Made by a program: the position numbers and the translations under genes. A stretch of DNA of 48,914 bases from a phage: the sequence record PZ445533.1. One strand, 5' to 3'. Numbering within the stretch: the stretch's first letter is position 1; every line of letters begins with the position of its first letter. Shown piece after piece: positions 6,191 through 47,635 of this stretch. The notes beneath the pieces are model-generated. The model was not told the DNA's origin. It saw only the letters and a list, made by a program, of their open reading frames with translations, and did not search any database.

Positions 6191-6208
6191 GTTTAACAAA
6201 AAGTGCTA
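6191..6208 (-). repeat. Isolated copy of 21-bp box (minus orientation) inside structural module
   Basis: TTTAACAAAAAGTGCTAT on + strand; no hairpin/CATCGAAACG tract; TATTAG 22 nt downstream in minus orientation. Confidence 0.5.
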
Positions 6209-6213
6209 TCATC

Positions 6214-6255: not shown

Positions 6256-7227
6256 ATGGCTAAAAAATACGATGAATTAGATGCTACCATTGTAGCAAAT
6301 CATTTACAGGTTCAGGGCGTTAAGGGTGATGCTTCTGATATGGGTATTTGGACCGCTCAAGAGCTACACAAGATCCGTTCAACGGCATACGAGAAAGAGT
6401 ATCCGGCAGGTTCCGCACTTCGCGTATTCCCTGTAACAAACGAGCTTTCTGATACTGATAAGACTTTTGAGTATCAGACTTTTGATAAGGTTGGCTACGC
6501 GAAAATTATCGCCGACTACACCGACGATCTGCCGACCGTGGACGCGCTGATGACTTCTGAATTTGGCAAGGTGTTCCGCCTGGGTAACGCTTTTCTGATC
6601 TCCATTGATGAGATTAAAGCAGGTCAGCGAACTGGCAAGAGCCTGTCAACTCGCAAGGCTAACGCTGCGCAAAATGCGCATGATCAGTTGATTAACTTCC
6701 TGGTGTTCAAAGGTTCCAAGCCTCATAAGATCGTTTCCGTTTTCGATCACCCTAACCTTACGAAAATTGTTTCTAAAGGATGGATGAGCCAGGATGGAAA
6801 CACCAAGTTCCCTGATGTGGCAAGCGATGAACTGGAGGCTGCAATCGAGACTATCGAGAAAGTAACAAAAGGTCAGCACCGCGCGACTAACATCCTGATC
6901 CCGCCGTCCATGCGTAAAGTCTTGACGGTTCGAATGGAAAATACCACTGAAAGTTATCTTGAATACTTCCAGAAGCAAAACGGCGGAATCACTATCGACT
7001 CTATCGCAGAGCTTGAGGATATTGACGGCAAAGGTGCGAAAGGTTGCTTGGTTTACGAAAAAGATCCAATGAACATGAGCATTGAGATTCCAGAAGCGTT
7101 TAACATGCTTCCGGCGCAGCCAAAAGACCTTCATTTCAAGGTTCCTTGCACTTCCAAGTGTACTGGCCTTACGATTTACCGTCCGTTTACGATGGTGCTT
7201 ATTACTGGCTTGAAAAAGTCAGTTTAA
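6256..7227 (+). CDS. Major capsid protein (putative)
   Basis: 323 aa, strong RBS GGAGG, followed by a strong rho-independent terminator; synteny. Confidence 0.6.
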   Translation: MAKKYDELDATIVANHLQVQGVKGDASDMGIWTAQELHKIRSTAYEKEYPAGSALRVFPVTNELSDTDKTFEYQTFDKVGYAKIIADYTDDLPTVDALMTSEFGKVFRLGNAFLISIDEIKAGQRTGKSLSTRKANAAQNAHDQLINFLVFKGSKPHKIVSVFDHPNLTKIVSKGWMSQDGNTKFPDVASDELEAAIETIEKVTKGQHRATNILIPPSMRKVLTVRMENTTESYLEYFQKQNGGITIDSIAELEDIDGKGAKGCLVYEKDPMNMSIEIPEAFNMLPAQPKDLHFKVPCTSKCTGLTIYRPFTMVLITGLKKSV

Positions 7228-8019: not shown

Positions 8020-8390
8020 ATTACAATGAGATTGCAAGAATGGCTACTGCTGGGATTAACTTTTTCAGCGACGCTAACGGTATGTTTAAGTGCATCACGC
8101 AGCAGGGAGGGGTTGAGATTATCGGCGGAGAGGAAGTTACCAAGCCTGAGATTTCAGTGATGATAAAGGGGCTTGTTAGATCTCCGAGGACTAGAGAGGT
8201 TGACGGTGAAACGATCCGAGTAACCGACAAGTTGGGGGTATTCACCAATGAAACTGAGATCAAAAATGGTTATCAGATTGAAATTGATGGCGATCGTTAT
8301 GTTGTCGTTGAAGCAAGACCAGTCAGACAGACTAACATCACGGCAGCTTATCGTCCGATATTAAGGAGGATTGCAGTGCATGGCGGATAA
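8016..8390 (+). CDS. Head-tail joining protein (putative)
   Basis: ATGA overlap with upstream gene; synteny. Confidence 0.4.
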
Positions 8391-9945: not shown

Positions 9946-9964
9946 TTTTAACAAAAAGTGCTAT
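9946..9964 (-). repeat. Isolated copy of 21-bp box (minus orientation) abutting RBS of chaperone G gene
   Basis: TTTTAACAAAAAGTGCTAT directly followed by AAGGAG and ATG 9979. Confidence 0.5.
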
Positions 9965-9978
9965 AAGGAGATCTTAAG

Positions 9979-20679: not shown

Positions 20680-20745
20680 CTTAGTTGTTGTTGGATGCAA
20701 CTATACACGATCTTGGGCATCGCGTTTAGCAAAAAGTGCTATTTG
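20680..20745 (-). promoter_or_regulatory. Motif cassette upstream of cor-like operon
   Basis: Minus-strand reading AAATAGCACTTTTTGCTAAA, imperfect hairpin, TATAGT, CATCCAACAACAAC, RBS AAGGAG. Confidence 0.45.
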
Positions 20746-21111: not shown

Positions 21112-21139
21112 TTGACTAAATCAACCAAATGGCTACAAT
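21112..21139 (+). promoter_or_regulatory. Sigma70-like promoter (TTGACT-16-TACAAT) for recombination operon
   Basis: Read directly: TTGACT 21112-21117, 16-nt spacer, TACAAT 21134-21139, about 30 nt upstream of ATG 21170. Confidence 0.55.
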
Positions 21140-21169
21140 GCACGCATAAAGCAACAAGGAGCATTAAAG

Positions 21170-23486: not shown

Positions 23487-24220
23487 TCTAACGTGGTTGG
23501 TTTGTTTACCAGTGCCGCTACAACCGCTTTTAGCTCGTCAATTTCTTTTCTCATCTCATCGTTTTCCGCTTTCAATTTCTTAACTTGGTGAATCAGTGGA
23601 ACAGTGAGGCGGTCATACATAACGCCTTCCGCCACCATGCCATTACTTGAAGCAATGGCAGGATCTTCTCCTTCTTGCAGCGGTCGCCAGTGAACGTATT
23701 CCGGCGCAATTTCTCCAACCTCTTCCGCGATTAGCCCGTACCATCCCCAATCTTTACGGTCGCTTTCACAAGTTGACCGATACCACACAGGACGCATTTC
23801 AAGCATCAGATCCGCATATTCATCAATAACCGATTCTACGCTGCTCTTATAACGAGAAGAGGAAGTGGAGCGTAAAACTTGCGACACTCCAGCATTTGGA
23901 TCAAGCCATAAGTTTGCTGATTGAGCGGTTGTGTTAATATTAAATAAATAAAATGCATCGTTACCAGTTAGGGGGTAAAAACTCCCACTATACCTTCCGC
24001 TATCCAACTTGGATGATAGATCAGTTTGTTTTAGATACGGTTTCAACTTATTGTCAACATCAGCAGTTGATGCTTTTCCTGCAACATCCTGTTTTAGTGT
24101 CGAAACATCACTTTTCAGCTTCGTTATATCACCAGGAATAGTAGCAACATCCTGTTTTAGTGTTGAAACGTCATTTTTCAGCTTCGTTATATCACTAGGT
24201 ATAACAGTGACTGTAGCCAT
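23483..24220 (-). CDS. Tail fibre-like protein with C-terminal S74-type intramolecular chaperone domain
   Basis: 245 aa; N-terminal 21-aa tandem repeat (ITKLK.DVSTLKQDVA), C-terminal GLIAEEVGEIAPEYV segment typical of peptidase S74 IMC domains. Confidence 0.55.
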   Translation of the reverse strand: MATVTVIPSDITKLKNDVSTLKQDVATIPGDITKLKSDVSTLKQDVAGKASTADVDNKLKPYLKQTDLSSKLDSGRYSGSFYPLTGNDAFYLFNINTTAQSANLWLDPNAGVSQVLRSTSSSRYKSSVESVIDEYADLMLEMRPVWYRSTCESDRKDWGWYGLIAEEVGEIAPEYVHWRPLQEGEDPAIASSNGMVAEGVMYDRLTVPLIHQVKKLKAENDEMRKEIDELKAVVAALVNKPTTLD

Positions 24221-24511: not shown

Positions 24512-26487
24512 TAAACAATTTCCCCCAATTGATGATCTGTTAGTGCCTTGTGCCATATACGGAAGTTTCTAACGTGCCCGAAAAGATGACGTTCTCCCGT
24601 AGTTGTTTGTCCGCCAATCCTTATAGTAGCCGTTGATACTATATATCTCCATTCCGTTTTTGTTTCGCTTGATATTCTGGCATTACTTACACAGCAATTA
24701 TTGTAATCACTCTTTACTCTCATTCCCACGATCATCTTTTTTAGTTTTGCATTCTCGTAAACCCTTCTGTTTGATCCACCTATATCGCAATAAGGGAATC
24801 CGTCATTATCGCCTTCGGCAGACCCGAAAGCAAGAATAATTGCCGCTCCGGTTTGATGGCCGCCTGTATCAAAAACACGTGGCGCTGCGTTTGGCGTTAT
24901 ACTCCAGTTTTTATGAGCTTCCACAAGCAATGTAAACGGCAAATTGTAAAGGTTGTTTTTTATTGGCAATGCAACCATATCGCTTGCCCGTGTTACTGGA
25001 GTATCTTCTGTAATAATAAAGGATGAAGCGCACGCCCCACCTTCAACTTGAGGTGTCGCAATATAAATATAATCATCCGCACCAGTGCCAACTCCTTTTG
25101 CTGGGGCATACTGAACCATTCCACCTATCATATTTTCTGTATCAAGTGCCTTAATTGTCGCCTCAAAAAAGATCCATTTGCTTGCTTCATCTTTAACAGC
25201 CCTTGCAGTAATACGATTTGCAGCGCCGCCAGTTTTTTCAATTGATAAATCTGTCAGATTTACGTAAGCATCACCCAAAAATGCATAAGCAGATCCATCG
25301 TAGTTTTCAAATCGTAATCGGCATCTTAAATTTGGAGTCCCACTTTGCGCCCTGCATGATATGGTTACATACTTTTCATTTCCTGTTACATCAAAACCTC
25401 TACTGCCGGAAACGGTTACTATGTTAATCGATGAAGTTTGCCCTACCATTTCTGGTTTTAATGTAAATTTTGCGTACTGGAATCCGAAATTATCCACACC
25501 TGATCTATCTAAGATCATATTTGATGACTTGTTCCATTTTGAAGGATTGACGCTATTTATAAGAAGGTTTGTTCTTTGCCCCTCAATTAGCAGACCATCC
25601 TTTTCAAATCTAGGTTCATCAATAGCAGCATTAGTAAGCACCCCAGACTTATTAATGTAAGTAGCGGCTGATGCTCGTTTAAACTTAACTATCTTGTCAC
25701 CTGGCATCGTGATCTCATCGTCACCTATAACAATCTTTTTGTATGACGGCGAGAATCCGGTAATCATATCCAGGGAGTCATTAAATGGTATCCACACGTC
25801 CGGCAACGGTTGCAATAAGTCCTTGTAAGGTTCTGCCGCCTGCTTTGCGTATTCCTCCGCCTGATCTCGCGCACTTTCAGCTCCTGCCTTTGCAGTGTTC
25901 GCAGCGTCACGCGCGGATTCAGCGCCAGACTTTGCTGCTTCAGCGCCAGTCTTTGCAGTGTTTGCAGCGTCGCGCGCGGATTCAGCGGCAGCCTTTGCAG
26001 TATCAGCACCTTTCTTGCTATTCGCTGCATTTGTTGCGCTTGTCTTCGCGTTATTCTCGCTGGTTTTAGCTGCCTGCTGGCTTGCTGCTGCTGCGTCAGC
26101 ATTTGTCTTTACGTCTTCCTGGATCTTCTGTAGCTTATCCCAATCAAAATCCTTGATGATCTCAATAAATCCAGCAAACTCCGATTCCTTCCCCTGGTAA
26201 TAACGCAGCGTTTCCGCTACGTCTTGCGCAAGACCGTCAACCGTTAACGAGTCATGAAGCAAGATCAGGTAATTTGTCTTCTGGACTACCGCGCCGCCAG
26301 TAGTAATTGCGCGAATGCTTGTATCGCTAATCACTTCTGTAATCACAGCAGCTTGCAAAGGTTGAGCAAGAAAGAAAATAGTTGCGCCTGGGCGAATCAA
26401 TGTTAATTGCTCACGCCATTTTGTACCGTAACCAGTTACATAACCTTGCGCGTCCATAGACGCTTGGCCTTGTCTGTAAATCGCCAT
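24511..26487 (-). CDS. Tail fibre / receptor-binding protein
   Basis: 658 aa from ATG 26487 (AGGAGG RBS); Ala/Lys-rich repeated coiled region (AESARDAANTAK x3), C-terminal lectin/LamG-like region. Confidence 0.65.
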   Translation of the reverse strand: MAIYRQGQASMDAQGYVTGYGTKWREQLTLIRPGATIFFLAQPLQAAVITEVISDTSIRAITTGGAVVQKTNYLILLHDSLTVDGLAQDVAETLRYYQGKESEFAGFIEIIKDFDWDKLQKIQEDVKTNADAAAASQQAAKTSENNAKTSATNAANSKKGADTAKAAAESARDAANTAKTGAEAAKSGAESARDAANTAKAGAESARDQAEEYAKQAAEPYKDLLQPLPDVWIPFNDSLDMITGFSPSYKKIVIGDDEITMPGDKIVKFKRASAATYINKSGVLTNAAIDEPRFEKDGLLIEGQRTNLLINSVNPSKWNKSSNMILDRSGVDNFGFQYAKFTLKPEMVGQTSSINIVTVSGSRGFDVTGNEKYVTISCRAQSGTPNLRCRLRFENYDGSAYAFLGDAYVNLTDLSIEKTGGAANRITARAVKDEASKWIFFEATIKALDTENMIGGMVQYAPAKGVGTGADDYIYIATPQVEGGACASSFIITEDTPVTRASDMVALPIKNNLYNLPFTLLVEAHKNWSITPNAAPRVFDTGGHQTGAAIILAFGSAEGDNDGFPYCDIGGSNRRVYENAKLKKMIVGMRVKSDYNNCCVSNARISSETKTEWRYIVSTATIRIGGQTTTGERHLFGHVRNFRIWHKALTDHQLGEIV

Positions 26488-26502: not shown

Positions 26503-26522
26503 AAATAGCACTTTTTGCTAAT
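26503..26522 (+). repeat. Isolated copy of 21-bp box upstream of tail fibre gene (opposite orientation)
   Basis: AAATAGCACTTTTTGCTAAT located 10 nt beyond fibre gene RBS. Confidence 0.5.
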
Positions 26523-26555
26523 GACAATGCAGATAATAGCATTTTCAAGTGCAAA

Positions 26556-26580
26556 AAAAAACCCCGCATAAGCGGGGCAA
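26556..26580. terminator. Terminator after primase gene (minus strand), A/T flanks both sides
   Basis: A9 CCCCGC ATAA GCGGGG. Confidence 0.6.
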
Positions 26581-26593
26581 TACTAGCGGAGTT

Positions 26594-27523
26594 TTATAGC
26601 AGTGATTCGGGCTTGTAGAGTTTTCTTTCTACTCCCTGTTTAAAATTATCGTTAACAGGCATCATTATGTCAAGCCCTCTTTCCTCTGCCGCGATTATCA
26701 CATCACGATCATCTTTCCGGCAGACTACGCGCATTCTTCTTTCTCCTTTATATCTATGCGCAACCATTTCAAGATTTGAAGGAGTAAAACAGGCCCACAC
26801 CTCTTGACCAGTTGATAAATGAACATGCTGAGAATCAACCCAATCAAGGCACAAATAGATCGTCTTATCTGTACTACCTGTTTTAACAACAGATCCTCGC
26901 GTGTAGTCGCGAGCTAAAAACCAATCCTTTCCATCCTCATCAATGAAAAGCACGTTACACATTTCATCATCCAGCCCGTCATCATGCACCAGGTGACAAG
27001 GTAGCGCGTGAATGTATCGACCATCCTTGACGCCGCAATCATAATGACAATCTTCCGGCGGATATATCCCCTCATAAACGCTTAAAGGTGTGCGATCGAA
27101 TTTTAATGTTTTTGCCATCACTTTTTCGCAACATTCATGACTTGCCTGTTTCCCGAACGAGTAACCAGAAGAACGCGAAGCGCGTTTGTTTGCTCTGATC
27201 CTGTAATCTTGTGGCACTTTTCCGAGGAAGCGGCCCAAAATGTTGATGGCCTCGCTGTAAGGTTCGCCAGTTAATTTCATTAACCAACCGATCCCCGTGT
27301 CGTTGCCGCACACGTTGCAGATCGCGCCGCCGTCGCCCTCTTCATTTAGCTTATCAGTCCATCTAAAACGATCCTTACCGCCGCAGTGTGGGCAAGGTTG
27401 ATGCTTTTTGTTGAAAACATCGCTATGCAGTCCGCAAATGCTTTGTAGTGCTTCACGCCATAACCCCTTCATATATGGCAAAACATCTTCTTTCTGATAG
27501 GTCATAAAGTTTTCAGTATTCAT
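26594..27523 (-). CDS. DNA primase (zinc-binding domain)
   Basis: CPHCGG...CNVCG zinc-finger motif; start ATG 27523 chosen because it follows a terminator hairpin and GAGG RBS. Confidence 0.6.
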   Translation of the reverse strand: MNTENFMTYQKEDVLPYMKGLWREALQSICGLHSDVFNKKHQPCPHCGGKDRFRWTDKLNEEGDGGAICNVCGNDTGIGWLMKLTGEPYSEAINILGRFLGKVPQDYRIRANKRASRSSGYSFGKQASHECCEKVMAKTLKFDRTPLSVYEGIYPPEDCHYDCGVKDGRYIHALPCHLVHDDGLDDEMCNVLFIDEDGKDWFLARDYTRGSVVKTGSTDKTIYLCLDWVDSQHVHLSTGQEVWACFTPSNLEMVAHRYKGERRMRVVCRKDDRDVIIAAEERGLDIMMPVNDNFKQGVERKLYKPESLL

Positions 27524-27530
27524 GGCAAAC

Positions 27531-27570
27531 CTCAATAAAAAAGCCCAGCAAATATTATCATTTCGCTGGG
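27531..27570 (-). terminator. Hairpin + T-run between HTH gene and primase start
   Basis: Minus-strand GCCCAGCGAAATGATAATATTTGCTGGGC followed by TTTTTTATT, then RBS GAGG and ATG 27523. Confidence 0.5.
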
Positions 27571-27578
27571 CCTTATCA

Positions 27579-28055
27579 TTAGCTATTCGTGCTGTTATCA
27601 CCTTTGTAGAATCTTCCGCCTGGTTCGTAGTCTGAATTTTTGACTACGCGCAACATTTCGTATTTGTCGCAACGGGTAGTAAGAGGCTTGCCGTTAGAAT
27701 CAAACCGCAGATCTGGACGACAAAATGATGCGCGGTATCCTTTGCATCCATTATATTTGTAGTCGTTATGCACCTTTTGTGCTCCAGCGGCTGAAATCAT
27801 ACCACGCTTTCGCCATTGGTTAACGACTTGCTGAGATACGCGCAGACGTCGAGCCATAGCAGGAACACCGCCATAATACTCGATCAGAATATCCAGGCGA
27901 GATTTCAGGCTTGCTTTTACCTCATCTCGCAGGATAAGGAATCCGGTTCGGTGTTTTCGTGGCTTTTTGTCTTTACCTCGTCGCGTTCCGTTGTTACCGT
28001 TAATAGTGCGCTTGTCGATCTCACCCGTAGATACTGCAATTCGTGCATCTTTCAT
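27579..28055 (-). CDS. Cro/YdaS-like HTH DNA-binding protein with C-terminal Cys cluster
   Basis: GGVPAMARRLRVSQQVVNQWRKRG HTH signature; basic N-terminus; GAGGTGA RBS. Confidence 0.55.
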   Translation of the reverse strand: MKDARIAVSTGEIDKRTINGNNGTRRGKDKKPRKHRTGFLILRDEVKASLKSRLDILIEYYGGVPAMARRLRVSQQVVNQWRKRGMISAAGAQKVHNDYKYNGCKGYRASFCRPDLRFDSNGKPLTTRCDKYEMLRVVKNSDYEPGGRFYKGDNSTNS

Positions 28056-28065
28056 CTAGTCACCT

Positions 28066-28130
28066 CATAGCATTTTTTGTTAAAACAGTTTATTGTAATG
28101 AGTCTATTATATACTCCAAATGGCATTTTT
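28066..28130 (+). promoter_or_regulatory. Motif copy in divergent region between HTH gene and helicase
   Basis: ATAGCATTTTTTGTTAAAAC then TATTAT 22 nt after TTGTTA, no hairpin; about 60 nt upstream of helicase ATG. Confidence 0.4.
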
Positions 28131-28142
28131 TAAAGGTTTAAG

Positions 28143-30140
28143 ATGATTCCAAATATCGAAAAACAAATATCAGCATTAGGCGAGGCAGTAATAAAAAGCA
28201 TCCAAGAGCGATTCACGGTTGGCAATATAGTGCCTTATCCTTATCAGTGCGTTGCGTATGCAGAGATCGCAAAGCGCATGAAAAACTATGAGCATCCTTT
28301 CTTTGTTAAGGCTTCTGTATCGGCTGGCAAAACATTGATGTTTGCGATGGTTGCGGCGCAATGCCGCAAAATGGGATTGAAAATGATGGTCCTTGCTCGC
28401 CAGGCTGAAATTGTTGATCAGGATTCGGAAGAGATCAGCAATCTTGGCGTGCCAAACTCAATCTATTGCGCCGGACTGAAAACAAAAAGCGCATACTTTC
28501 CGATCGTAGTCGGTTCTGAGGGCACTGTAGTAAACGGATTGTTTAAGTCGTTAGGTGATTATGTTCCGCACGTTATCGGTATTGATGAATGTCACCAGGT
28601 GGATTGGGAGGATCTCGCGGACGCGATAGAAAATAATGAATCTTACCAGCAGATGACCACTAAGAAGGATTTGCCAGTACTGATTGGAGAAGAACAGCAA
28701 TTTGATTCCAATGGCGATCCAATGTTCGGAACAGGGCGCACACAGTACACCGTAATAATAATGGAAATGATGCGTAGGTGTCGCGAGGCATACGGGCACG
28801 AATTGCGAATATTCGGCATGACTGGATCTGAGTTTCGCGGCGTGGTTCCAATACTGGTTGAAGATAAGAACAAAAAGGGATTCTGGCGTGAGCAGGTGAC
28901 TAACATAGACACAAACTACTTAATCAAATTCGGTTCGGTAGTGCCAACAAACTTCGGCGACGTAGGCGACCTGGGTTATGACCTTTCAGAGTTCGAAGCC
29001 AGTAGCGAGGATGGCGTTTCAGACTTTGACGCTAAAACATTGCGCAAGATGGAAGAAAAGATCCATCAAGACGCAACAATGACACAGAAAATCATGGCTA
29101 AAGTCCATGAGATATGCAAAGACAGGAACGGAGTTTTAGTTACATGCGCAGGGGAAAGGCACTGCAAGGAGGCCGCCGCCGCACTGCCGCCAGGCGTTGA
29201 ATACAGGATCATAACTGGCAAGACTGGAGATAATCAGCGTAAAGAGTGGCTGAGGGAGGCATACGAGGGAAAAGTAAAATACATCTTCCAGGTACAGGCG
29301 CTTACCACTGGCGTTAACGTTCCGTTTTGGGATACTTCTGTAATACTGAGAAAGATAGGATCTCTAACATTGCTTATCCAGCTTTTGGGGCGCGGCATGC
29401 GACTGCTTAAGCAATGGCACATTGAGCAGGGATTCAAGAAAAAAGATCATCTTGTATTGGATTTTGCAGGTACTATGGATGAGTTAGGTGATTTGTATTT
29501 CGATCCAATCCTTGAGCAAGCGCAATTCCAAAAGAGATTTACAAACGGGAAAGAGCCTAAGACTTGTCCGATATGTGGAACGCTAAACAGCTTTTACGCT
29601 CGCCGATGTATGCACGTAGACGATAACGGGAAACGATGCGAGCATTTTTGGACTTACAGAATTTGCGAGGACCAGGTAGATCCGAGAACAAAAAAGATAA
29701 TCAAGCGCGGTTGCGGAACAAAAAACGACGTAGTGGCGAGAGTTTGCCGTTGTTGCGATATTTCTCTTGTCGATCCTAACGAGAAGTTAAGCGGTAAGCA
29801 CTACACCAAAAACGATTGGTGCAACGTTAAATATTTCCGCGTTGATATGACGAAAAACCAGAAAGGAATTGTTTTTTGCTATGAGCTTGAGGCCAACGGC
29901 GACACGTTCAAGGCATACGAAAGATTTTTCCCTGAGTCAGAAAGCAACATTTGCCGGACGATATGGAGAAAAATAGCATTGCAGCACATACCGGATCGCA
30001 AGATTGCTGGTATGGTGGCGAGCTATAGAAATGCGCGTAAAATAATGTCATACGCTCATCACATCATGCCGCCTGTACGCGTAACGCATCGCAAAAACGG
30101 CAAAGGTGAGGATAACATTGCAAAACGGGAGTTTGTTTAA
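28143..30140 (+). CDS. SF2 DNA helicase with C-terminal zinc-ribbon region
   Basis: Walker A ASVSAGKT, DECH box, TGS motif, QLLGRGMR motif VI; Cys-rich C-terminus. Confidence 0.85.
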   Translation: MIPNIEKQISALGEAVIKSIQERFTVGNIVPYPYQCVAYAEIAKRMKNYEHPFFVKASVSAGKTLMFAMVAAQCRKMGLKMMVLARQAEIVDQDSEEISNLGVPNSIYCAGLKTKSAYFPIVVGSEGTVVNGLFKSLGDYVPHVIGIDECHQVDWEDLADAIENNESYQQMTTKKDLPVLIGEEQQFDSNGDPMFGTGRTQYTVIIMEMMRRCREAYGHELRIFGMTGSEFRGVVPILVEDKNKKGFWREQVTNIDTNYLIKFGSVVPTNFGDVGDLGYDLSEFEASSEDGVSDFDAKTLRKMEEKIHQDATMTQKIMAKVHEICKDRNGVLVTCAGERHCKEAAAALPPGVEYRIITGKTGDNQRKEWLREAYEGKVKYIFQVQALTTGVNVPFWDTSVILRKIGSLTLLIQLLGRGMRLLKQWHIEQGFKKKDHLVLDFAGTMDELGDLYFDPILEQAQFQKRFTNGKEPKTCPICGTLNSFYARRCMHVDDNGKRCEHFWTYRICEDQVDPRTKKIIKRGCGTKNDVVARVCRCCDISLVDPNEKLSGKHYTKNDWCNVKYFRVDMTKNQKGIVFCYELEANGDTFKAYERFFPESESNICRTIWRKIALQHIPDRKIAGMVASYRNARKIMSYAHHIMPPVRVTHRKNGKGEDNIAKREFV

Positions 30141-30559: not shown

Positions 30560-30612
30560 CACTTTTTGTTAAAACTGGCGCGATGGATTGCGCCATAATT
30601 CAATAACACGAG
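30553..30612 (+). promoter_or_regulatory. Motif cassette (21-bp box + hairpin + ATAAT) upstream of dam
   Basis: AAATAGCACTTTTTGTTAAAAC with TAG as stop of VRR-NUC gene; hairpin GGCGCGATGGATTGCGCC; CATAAT 22 nt after TTGTTA. Confidence 0.5.
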
Positions 30613-31627: not shown

Positions 31628-31690
31628 TAGCACTTTTTGTTAAAACGCCCGGCATTTTGTCGGGCATAATTATTTCATCGAAACGAACGT
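31626..31690 (+). promoter_or_regulatory. Motif cassette
   Basis: AATAGCACTTTTTGTTAAAAC, hairpin GCCCGGCATTTTGTCGGGC, ATAATT, CATCGAAACGAAC, RBS GAGG. Confidence 0.5.
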
Positions 31691-33324: not shown

Positions 33325-33469
33325 TGAATTTTTATTTAAATCAATGACAAATTAAATCAAAAACTTGCAAAGGGGCGGCGTTTGTCGCCTCTTTTTTTTG
33401 TTTAATTTTTTACCATGTACGTTTATCATGCGGTCAATATATTGACTTTAATTAATATGGAGAATAAAA

Positions 33470-34814: not shown

Positions 34815-34889
34815 CCTTTTTGGTTGGTTCGTTTCGATGAAACAAATATACCCGACACAAGGTCGGGAGTTTTAACAAAAAATGCTATT
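34815..34889 (-). promoter_or_regulatory. Motif cassette
   Basis: Minus-strand AATAGCATTTTTTGTTAAAAC, hairpin CCCGACCTTGTGTCGGG, TATATT, CATCGAAACGAACC. Confidence 0.5.
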
Positions 34890-36984: not shown

Positions 36985-37053
36985 GCTTCTCCTTTGTGGG
37001 CCGTAAATTTTAACGGCCCAATACTACCCCGTTTTGTCAAAAAGTGCTATTTG
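36985..37053 (-). promoter_or_regulatory. Motif cassette (box carries canonical TTGACA) upstream of P-loop ATPase gene
   Basis: Minus-strand AAATAGCACTTTTTGACAAAAC, hairpin GGGCCG...CGGCCC with TAAAAT in loop 22 nt after TTGACA. Confidence 0.5.
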
Positions 37054-37659: not shown

Positions 37660-37727
37660 CTCCTTTGTTTGTTCGATGTGATTATGCCAGGTTTTTACAC
37701 CTGGCTTTTAACAAAAAGTGCTATTTT
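37660..37727 (-). promoter_or_regulatory. Motif cassette
   Basis: Minus-strand motif containing methyltransferase stop TAG, hairpin GCCAGGTGTAAAAACCTGGC, ATAATC, TCGAACAAACAAAGGAG. Confidence 0.5.
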
Positions 37728-39574: not shown

Positions 39575-39643
39575 CCTCGTTTGTTGTCGATGCGCTTACT
39601 ATACCAATCAGCAGCGCATCGTTTTTAACAAAAAGTGCTATTT
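39575..39643 (-). promoter_or_regulatory. Motif cassette
   Basis: Minus-strand motif, hairpin GATGCGCT...AGCGCATC with TATAGT in loop, CATCGACAACAAACGAGGA. Confidence 0.5.
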
Positions 39644-41485: not shown

Positions 41486-41514
41486 TTGACACATTAAATA
41501 GCATTATTGATAAT
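41486..41514 (+). promoter_or_regulatory. Sigma70-like promoter (TTGACA-17-GATAAT) for rightward operon
   Basis: TTGACA 41486-41491, 17-nt spacer, GATAAT 41509-41514, RBS AGGAGG and ATG 41544 downstream. Confidence 0.6.
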
Positions 41515-41543
41515 GCCGACACCTAACAACCAGGAGGTAGAAA

Positions 41544-42277: not shown

Positions 42278-42335
42278 CACTTTTTGTTAAAACTCAAATG
42301 TGGGGCCAGGTATAATGGCCTCACTTTCAACGAGA
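42272..42335 (+). promoter_or_regulatory. Motif cassette
   Basis: Motif with TAG stop of lipoprotein gene; hairpin GGCC...GGCC with TATAAT in loop, 21 nt after TTGTTA. Confidence 0.5.
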
Positions 42336-43684: not shown

Positions 43685-43775
43685 CACTTTTTGTTAAAGC
43701 ATTCCATCGGGCTTGCTTTATAGTAAGCCCATCAACAACGAAAGAGGAAAGCATCATGTTGTTACAGCAGACGAG
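43679..43775 (+). promoter_or_regulatory. Motif cassette
   Basis: Motif, hairpin GGGCTT...AAGCCC with TATAGT in loop, ATCAACAACGAAAGAGGAAA. Confidence 0.5.
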
Positions 43776-44643: not shown

Positions 44644-44705
44644 CACGAATTGCTAAACGCGGGGCGCAATGCTCCGCTATAATTTACCCCGTTCAGTAAA
44701 CATAG
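44639..44705 (+). promoter_or_regulatory. Motif cassette (variant box AAATAGCACGAATTGCTAAA)
   Basis: Variant box containing kinase stop TAG, GC hairpin, TATAAT 22 nt after TTGCTA. Confidence 0.45.
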
Positions 44706-45990: not shown

Positions 45991-46050
45991 CACTTTTTGT
46001 TAAAACCAGCTTCGGCTGGTTTTGTATTATATGCGCATCGACAACAGAGG
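45985..46050 (+). promoter_or_regulatory. Motif cassette
   Basis: Motif with TAG stop, hairpin CCAGCTTCGGCTGG + T-run, TATTAT, CATCGACAACAGAGGAGG. Confidence 0.5.
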
Positions 46051-47543: not shown

Positions 47544-47572
47544 TTGACAACGTTGTCATGATTGGATAGCAT
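47544..47572 (+). promoter_or_regulatory. Promoter candidate TTGACA-17-TAGCAT with embedded 14-bp perfect palindrome TGACAACGTTGTCA
   Basis: TTGACA 47544-47549, spacer 17, TAGCAT 47567-47572; palindrome 47545-47558 overlaps -35. Confidence 0.4.
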
Positions 47573-47635
47573 CAATCCCGTAAACGTAAGAGCGGCCTTG
47601 CTGCCGAACGCGTGACGCGATAGTCACAAACAACG

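Follow-up and report, generated by a model that had tools for sequence, protein, structure and literature searches.

What does the small helix-turn-helix (HTH) protein encoded between the DNA primase and helicase genes of T1-like phages regulate, and through which DNA sites? We address this question for the phage sequence record PZ445533.1, whose whole stretch of 48,914 nucleotides is here called the window. The gene in question (the regulator gene) lies on the minus strand, and the window holds 17 copies of a 21-bp box, TTTTAACAAAAAGTGCTATTT. We propose, on the basis of sequence comparison, that the regulator may be an early, self-limiting activator of promoters built on this box, a proposal for which we judge the balance of probability to be even. 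It is the best candidate, although not a proven one, for the factor behind the odd promoters of this phage family.

The 1-kb region around the regulator gene is 99% identical to the Escherichia phages ityhuna, tinuso, ExeQuayColi, swan01 and JK16. ExeQuayColi (Drexlerviridae; Tempevirinae; Warwickvirus) is nearly collinear with the window at the regulator locus, with an offset of ~190 bp; from this identity and collinearity we conclude that the window is an essentially complete genome of a T1-like virulent phage, Warwickvirus-like within the Drexlerviridae. In the 99%-identical relatives the gene is annotated as a 'putative transcriptional regulator', and lies between the DNA primase gene on the same strand and an ATP-dependent helicase gene on the opposite strand. 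Among the features listed for ExeQuayColi (96 of the 100 in its record) it is the sole annotated 'transcriptional regulator'; these 96 features include no second predicted DNA-binding protein, no repressor, integrase or other lysogeny gene, and nothing that would place the regulator in a lysis-lysogeny switch with a partner repressor.

Box promoters and their central dyad

In 13 of the 17 copies the box, read on the other strand as AAATAGCACnnnTTGnTAAAA, is followed by an 18-19-nt spacer, a TAtaaT-like hexamer, an A-rich leader, a ribosome-binding site (RBS) and an ATG. From this arrangement we predict that the 21-nt box forms the upstream half of a family of promoters with the pattern ATAGCACnnnTTGnTAAAA-N19-TAtaaT-CA(+1). 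We compared box sites in 80 IMG/VR loci, in the phages Vc1 and Motto, and in four divergent relatives (L084, L085, L087 and L088). The same architecture is present in every Drexlerviridae lineage sampled among the 80 loci, and in Vc1, Motto, L084, L087 and L088. A −10-like hexamer stands 18-20 nt from the box in 338 of 374 distinct box contexts, and exactly 19 nt from it in 280.

A logo of these 280 distinct promoters places the box at −52 to −32, with a G at −14 in 78% of them and a conserved C(−1)A(+1) 7 nt past the hexamer. The logo contains a dyad, TAGCA (−49 to −45) and TG(C/T)TA (−39 to −35), with N5 between the arms and its centre at −42; with 5+5 bp arms lying 10 bp apart, the dyad is a candidate operator for a Cro-type dimer. 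When the starts are inferred from the conserved C(−1)A(+1), the arrangement is that of a class II activator site, centred near −41.5 and overlapping or replacing the −35 element. No −35 is found at 16-18 nt in the logo of the 280 box promoters. The sequence TTGnTA cannot act as a normal −35, because it is spaced 22 bp from the −10, and the box as a sigma54 −24/−12 element is ruled out by spacing and by the missing GG.

The pattern of box, N20 and ATAAT was found in 110 stretches among 2.9 million viral contigs; among the 80 matches listed of these 110, all were on contigs of at most ~53 kb, and many of these contigs also carry the HTH gene. In L087, a 50-kb phage of 55% GC, clear box promoters were observed at 6343, 8933 and 10986, with the −10 seemingly 1 nt further from the box, and in L085 a box-like site matching 13/15 positions lies at 8286-8304, within its own HTH gene.

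The element itself has been published. A 2024 re-annotation of phage TLS reported a 21-nt direct repeat, aaATAGCACnnnTTGnTAAAA, in about 20 copies oriented with transcription, found just three sigma70-like promoters, and left the function of the repeat open (stoperator, enhancer site or UP element) without naming a binder (PMC11447400). This repeat is the same element as the window box. Absent from the TLS paper are the constant 19-nt distance to a −10, the −42 dyad, the copies on either side of the regulator gene and the predicted primase promoter inside the terminator. In the literature that we could reach there was nothing else on the box, nothing on the regulator protein, and no transcriptome or transcription programme of a T1-like phage.

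The four remaining boxes (6191-6211, 9946-9966, 26503-26523 and 1564-1584) have no −10 at the standard distance. They lie directly 5' of the RBSs of late genes (major head, tape-measure chaperone, tail fibre and portal), three of them in the orientation opposite to the gene; most lineages keep the tail-fibre copy at the same place and in the same orientation. Upstream of the inverted tail-fibre box, at a distance of 9 nt, is a conserved extended −10 (TGCTATTAT at 26541..26533 on the minus strand, TGCTATAAT in other lineages), which would put that box at about +3 to +21, operator-like for a late promoter.

A shared −10 with the divergent helicase

Upstream of the regulator gene, a single box lies at −50 to −32 of the predicted helicase promoter and at about +15 to +33 of the predicted regulator transcript. 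On the plus strand, TATTAT (28105-28110), 19 nt from the box, is the predicted helicase −10, and is followed by the helicase RBS and the ATG at 28143; on the minus strand, TATAAT (28111..28106) is the predicted regulator −10. With 5 bp common to the two divergent −10s, use of the helicase promoter should preclude use of the regulator promoter, and vice versa. Given the box in the regulator leader and the shared −10, binding at this site would be expected to silence the regulator and activate the helicase.

The box upstream of the regulator RBS, with its GTATAATAC core, and the overlapping divergent −10s are conserved in all lineages examined, and in each of the Drexlerviridae lineages sampled a box lies on either side of the regulator gene. 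The ExeQuayColi record (L081) annotates a 32-aa 'hypothetical protein' at 28235-28333, equivalent to about 28043-28141 (+) of the window, that spans this divergent promoter region. The box, the two −10s and the start codon of the regulator all fall under this open reading frame (ORF), which is unlikely to be a real gene.

A terminator after the regulator gene and a predicted primase promoter within it

The preliminary description of the locus had reported a hairpin and T-run after the regulator gene, followed by the primase RBS and ATG; sequence, folding and conservation all confirm this. The stem pairs GCCCAGC (27571..27565) with GCTGGGC (27549..27543) and is extended by A-U pairs, and the T6 run is at 27542..27537 (tail T6ATT). 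With 7 G-C-rich pairs plus the A-U extension, the hairpin begins 5 nt past the regulator stop codon. For the surrounding 86-nt region the folding energy is −25.7 kcal/mol (z = −4.1; none of 200 shuffled sequences was as stable), and for the hairpin alone it is −18.4 kcal/mol; by the same criterion, a hairpin with T-tail is found in only 20 of 978 (2%) 100-nt windows of the genome. A simple terminator scan missed this hairpin, probably owing to a bulge and the long A-U-extended stem, and it was recovered by folding.

A hairpin and T-run are present in 54 of 56 distinct orthologous junctions, with unrelated stem sequences and stabilities of −14.5 to −25.9 kcal/mol. Both marks of an intrinsic terminator are therefore found, a G+C-rich stem-loop with a U-run past the stop codon and a structure kept through different sequences, and the simplest reading is that the hairpin ends the regulator transcript. 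Termination directly after the stop codon would make the regulator gene a self-contained cassette.

The 3' end of the regulator gene carries an overlapping box in nearly all lineages, with a −10-like hexamer exactly 19 nt beyond it in the terminator loop (TATCAT, TAACAT, TATTAT or CATAAT in lineages other than that of the window). The degenerate copy in the window (Table 1) is orthologous to the perfect boxes of TLS-like phages (ATAGCACTGATTGCTAAAA, encoding DSTDC*), and its ACAGCAC and TAGCTAA variants are also found at other promoters. The regulator C-termini STNS*, STNC*, STKS* and DSTDC* are the translation of AGCACnnnTTGCTAA, and the ATAGCAC of the Klebsiella phages includes the TAG that ends translation of the regulator. 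At 27577-27595, and at the orthologous sites of L004, L041 and L027, the overlapping box is a DNA signal that fixes the C-terminus of a protein.

The hairpin is absent in Vc1, Motto and L084, yet the box and −10 are retained there. Because the box and −10 are conserved at a fixed register and are kept even without a hairpin, we consider it most likely that primase is expressed from a separate box promoter within the terminator, and not through attenuation control. The predicted primase start falls in the 3' arm of the hairpin, and a transcript begun there could therefore not form the hairpin; on the simplest reading, the T-run becomes part of a short primase leader.

Fold, family and conservation of the regulator

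The product had been described as a 158-aa Cro/YdaS-like HTH protein, and the ORF, its RBS, and the profile and structural matches agree on this. PHROG 2856 (Drexlerviridae 'transcriptional regulator') gives a full-length match (E = 1.6e-72; residues 4-144 on positions 2-142 of the 165 in the profile). The scores to PF15943 (YdaS_toxin, 28.7 bits) and PF14549 (P22_Cro, 19.9 bits) are below the gathering cutoffs of 30 and 30.2; precomputed matches to one or other of these models are present on many homologs, which places the family, with the window protein just under, at the border of both. Sequence-profile matches to the solved Cro proteins XPH1, Xfaso Cro and P22 Cro have E ~2e-3. An AlphaFold2 model built with 32 homologs has a predicted local distance difference test score above 90 for residues 35-150, and is poor for residues 1-30. 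The protein has the all-alpha Cro/cI fold with an HTH, the core helices being residues 44-61, 64-71, 75-84 and 89-101.

The most conserved segment in the alignment is not the HTH; it is a basic N-terminal arm at residues 14-33 (DKRTINGNNGTRRGKDKKPR), mostly invariant in the pattern D14 K R x x N19 G N N G T x R26 G x D29 x x x R33. This arm is missing in two remote relatives, L085 and L087. The C-terminal extension is specific to the family and has the conserved motif G(Y/F)RA(S/T)FCRPDLxFDxNGK. The recognition helix (residues 74-81) is variable: SQQVVNQW in the window, NLKTVWGW in TLS, SIQVVQQW in Klebsiella phages, CCVRLTNAY in Vibrio phage Vc1, and SYPRVKSM in a further case.

Two other features that had been drawn from the sequence fared less well. 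The cysteine cluster exists (C104, C112 and C129, spaced C-x7-C-x16-C), but only C129 is conserved in at least 90% of homologs; C104 is F, S or a gap in about half of them, and C112 is I, V or L in some. Because C129 alone is near-invariant, no metal site is supported, and we rule out a zinc or other metal site formed by the three cysteines. The palindromes at 47545 (TGACAACGTTGTCA) and 33433 (GTCAATATATTGAC), considered as further operators for the regulator, were rejected: their half-sites differ, they are not conserved, and they do not track the recognition helix. The second, at 33433-33446, is a perfect palindrome flanked by a TATCAT hexamer and the RBS of the holin gene; in L004, an 80%-identical relative with a near-identical recognition helix, a different palindrome, AACAATTAATTGTT, is present at the holin site.

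The regulator family was found in 850 phage records, with named hosts that include Klebsiella, Escherichia, Shigella, Salmonella, Citrobacter, Enterobacter, Vibrio and Pseudomonas. Nearly all of the 850 are named for enterobacterial or other Gram-negative hosts, and every one that was inspected belongs to the Drexlerviridae. Only ~14 full-length relatives were found among 1.84 billion cluster representatives, and full-length matches in a viral structure library were restricted to Drexlerviridae orthologs. The remote relatives L084, L085, L087 and L088 (30-35% identity) keep the synteny, with a divergent helicase gene on one side of the HTH gene and primase following it. In L085 and L087 the HTH stop codon overlaps the start of the next gene (primase in L087), and in L088 the genes directly abut.

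Proposed activation through the box and its alternatives

We propose that host sigma70 RNA polymerase would make the regulator early, from its own box-less promoter (TTTAAA-17-TATAAT), and that the transcript would stop at the strong terminator right past the stop codon. The regulator, probably as a dimer, would bind the box (19-21 bp) at its TAGCA-N5-TG(C/T)TA dyad. In 13 promoters of the genome the box would be centred at −42, replacing a usable −35 at a fixed 19 nt upstream of the TAtaaT −10, and from this class II position the regulator would recruit the host polymerase. At its own locus, binding would turn the regulator gene off and the helicase on simultaneously, with the shared −10 flipping direction. 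Primase would be transcribed from a further box promoter, starting in the 3' arm of the hairpin and escaping termination. We favour activation because the −42 dyad comes without a −35, because the regulator is the sole one annotated, because boxes bracket its gene, and because its own promoter is box-less. What the analysis shows is the sequence architecture, its conservation and the protein fold; box binding by the regulator, the direction and timing of regulation and the start sites are inferred.

The preliminary description had already named the protein as a candidate binder of the 21-bp box. That suggestion is plausible, given the sole annotated regulator, the flanking boxes and the −42 dyad; several observations weigh against it and against activation by this protein. 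The recognition helix is the variable part of the protein while in those phages the box core stays essentially the same, unlike the situation in co-evolving operator-regulator pairs; with the box invariant, we found no co-variation of the two. The invariant parts of the protein are the N-terminal arm and the RPDL motif, rather than the recognition helix, and the arm as the reader of the box is weakened by the arm-less L087 homolog, which coexists with boxes. L085, which also lacks the arm, has no box promoters in 9 kb. The co-occurrence of protein and box is confounded by shared ancestry. Most non-structural genes would be under box promoters, among them small genes at the end of the genome whose products may be required very early, which would fit direct recognition by host polymerase. 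Finally, the primase box is degenerate in the window itself.

A possible objection to activation is that the protein is a repressor only, Cro-like or of the 'stoperator' kind, and that host polymerase uses the box promoters unaided, helped by A-tracts and by G−14, until the protein later represses them and itself. We consider this unlikely, even though it accords with the Cro fold, with the box in the regulator's own leader (+15 to +33), with box promoters that precede early-looking genes, and with the operator-like inverted boxes that lie between the extended −10 TGCTATTAT (26541..26533) and the tail-fibre RBS and near other late RBSs; the stoperator analogy was itself raised in the TLS paper (PMC11447400). 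Unaided activity of these promoters is doubtful, since there is no −35 at a usable distance and the extended −10 is partial (T−15 in 21%); the exact 19 nt that separate box and −10 in 280 of 374 contexts suit the geometry of an activator and are not what a repressor needs, and the variable recognition helix is as much an objection here. That last difficulty is avoided if the box is read by host RNA polymerase, a host factor or another small phage protein, leaving the HTH protein as merely a local regulator of the helicase/regulator/primase region through lineage-specific contacts. The box is invariant from coliphages to Vibrio- and Pseudomonas-named phages (L082, L083) and the metagenomic L084 while the recognition helix changes; A-tracts at −52 to −50, −43 to −41 and −35 to −32 recur in phase with the helix, as in UP elements or curved DNA (the UP-element idea is also in PMC11447400); and dozens of small ORFs in the genome are uncharacterised. 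However, the ATAGCAC and TTG(C) blocks, which are invariant and contain G/C, are not UP-like, a comparison with the consensus sites of host factors (CRP, FNR, IHF, Fis and sigma54 spacing) suggests no match, annotation predicts no further DNA-binding protein, and boxes bracket the regulator gene in every sampled Drexlerviridae lineage. We give this explanation the same low probability as repression alone.

Two further explanations concern the neighbouring genes. The protein could be a replication accessory, binding an origin or recruiting helicase or primase in a role analogous to that of lambda O; the helicase/HTH/primase synteny, kept at 30-35% identity with overlapping or abutting genes, speaks for such a role, T1-like phages are without an identified replication initiator, and contacts with other proteins could be made by the invariant arm and RPDL motif. 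However, we found no iteron array or origin-like repeat at the locus other than the promoter boxes, a small Cro-type domain is typical of transcription regulators, and the boxes elsewhere have clear promoter anatomy; we regard a replication role as distinctly improbable. The least probable of the four, in our estimate, is the attenuation or antitermination of primase that the preliminary description had suggested, in which primase would be expressed by regulated read-through of the terminator from the regulator promoter. There is indeed a strong terminator between the genes, only ~20 nt before the primase ATG, and with the window primase box degenerate (11/15) read-through could contribute. 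Against this, the minimum free energy and centroid structures are one single hairpin with no competing stem and no antiterminator fold, and no Rfam element was found at the hairpin at E up to 1. We saw no alternative fold, leader peptide or nut/put-like element, and the sequence upstream is the coding 3' end of the regulator. The box and −10 keep their fixed register across lineages, including the hairpin-less Vc1, Motto and L084, and hairpin-embedded promoters recur elsewhere in the genome. Activation through the box remains our preferred reading.

Features of the locus and of the wider genome

The features of the locus are collected in Table 1. The primase start codon given there agrees with the 309-aa primase annotated in relatives.

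Table 1. Observed and predicted features around the regulator gene (window coordinates)
Feature	Coordinates	Strand	Basis
Regulator coding sequence, 158 aa, ATG start	28055..27579	-	ORF, profile matches
Shine-Dalgarno GAGGTG of regulator, abuts box	28066..28061	-	sequence
Promoter box ATAGCATTTTTTGTTAAAA	28067..28085	+	comparison; conserved here in all lineages
Shared −10 TATTATA / TATAATA	28105..28111	both	sequence
Weak −35 TTTAAA of predicted regulator promoter, 17-nt spacer, overlaps helicase RBS region	28129..28134	-	
Divergent helicase coding sequence, 665 aa, ResIII/Helicase_C	28143..30140	+	ORF and profile; predicted box promoter 28067-28110
Degenerate box ACAGCACGAATAGCTAATG, 11/15 specified positions, over last codons (S-T-N-S) and stop	27577..27595	-	orthology
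Intrinsic-terminator hairpin and T6	27574..27537	-	folding, comparison
−10-like hexamer GATAAT in hairpin loop, 17 nt from box	27559..27554	-	
−10-like hexamer TAATAT in hairpin loop, 19 nt from box	27557..27552	-	
Primase RBS GAGG	27533..27530	-	
Primase start ATG	27523..27521	-	
DNA primase coding sequence, 309 aa, Zn_Ribbon_Prim	26594..27523	-	ORF and profile
Primase own terminator	26578..26561	-	sequence scan

G+C-rich inverted repeats were observed at many box promoters of the window. Some lie within the 19-nt spacer (z down to −7), and others flank the −10 and so place it in the loop, like the hairpin at the primase junction. They were seen at 30575-30600, 31646-31671, 34844-34869, 37680-37705, 44659-44684 and 46006-46031, with further cases at 20690-20723, 37000-37031, 39590-39622, 42293-42325 and 43700-43730. 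Promoter-embedded hairpins thus appear to be a general design of this genome.

Classical sigma70-type intergenic promoters are few, and all are on the plus strand: TTGACT-16-TACAAT at 21112-21145 precedes the exonuclease VIII/Erf/SSB operon, TTGACA-17-GATAAT at 41486-41520 lies at the divergence point of a small-gene region, and TTGACA-17-TAGCAT at 47544-47575 overlaps the perfect palindrome TGACAACGTTGTCA. Two genes of the tail-fibre region on the minus strand contain 63-nt tandem repeats (86-92% identical), at 24081-24203 and 25876-26001.

Significance

The regulator was already annotated and is of the phage Cro-fold kind, and the box was known from the literature without an explanation; to the extent of our searches, the regulatory wiring is new. 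For the family of T1, a classic T phage, we offer a promoter model (box at −52 to −32, 19-nt spacer, −10 and CA start) together with a named candidate factor, and we further predict an autoregulatory switch at the helicase/regulator region and a terminator-embedded primase promoter. The Drexlerviridae are very common among coliphage and Klebsiella phage isolates, some of which are studied as phage-therapy candidates; if the proposal is true, they gain a defined regulatory logic, and compact, insulated promoter-terminator parts are supplied. If it is refuted, the gene stays an ordinary annotated HTH regulator. In its broadest form, the proposal would be that one Cro-fold activator runs most non-structural transcription of T1-like phages from ~17 promoters in which a −42 dyad replaces the −35, with a one-site switch on a shared −10, hairpin-insulated units, and the arm DKRxxNGNNGxxRGxD as a new motif for contact with DNA or polymerase. 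We put this forward tentatively, as somewhat more likely to fail than to hold.

Comparison with known systems

The closest structural relatives are the all-alpha Cro proteins (Xfaso 1 Cro, 3bd1; P22 Cro, 1rzs; N15 Cro, 2hin) and YdaS (8c7k), which are the best matches, in structure and in sequence, to regulator residues ~40-105 and have in common with it the HTH signature 'GV.....V..W...G.I'. These proteins are 60-100 aa long and act in lysis-lysogeny or prophage switches with a partner repressor. The regulator, in contrast, has ~40 extra N-terminal and ~50 extra C-terminal residues and is restricted to T1-like lytic phages.

As a genome-wide system, the proposed scheme resembles the MotA/AsiA middle promoters of T4, where the box of a phage factor replaces the −35 at many promoters that keep a sigma70 −10, defining a temporal class. 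T4 MotA differs in that its box is centred at −30, its fold is a double wing rather than an HTH, and AsiA is needed to remodel sigma70. The predicted switch at the regulator locus recalls p4 of phi29, an early protein that represses early promoters and activates a divergent one from intervening sites, partly through an N-terminal DNA-binding hook. The phi29 protein, however, has an unrelated fold and sites that lie further upstream, and it acts through the C-terminal domain of the polymerase alpha subunit and through DNA bending with p6.

The direct precedent is lambda cI at PRM, where a protein of the Cro/cI fold activates in class II fashion from an operator centred at −42. There, as with P22 c2, an HTH dimer at the −42 operator activates via sigma70 region 4, and the geometry that we propose is alike. 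The phage studied here differs from lambda in being virulent, with no lysogeny module in its annotated relative; in having ~17 sites spread over the genome instead of a single operator cluster, at promoters without a −35; and in having a regulator with an invariant N-terminal arm and a unique C-terminal extension, at a locus where the divergent promoters share a −10.

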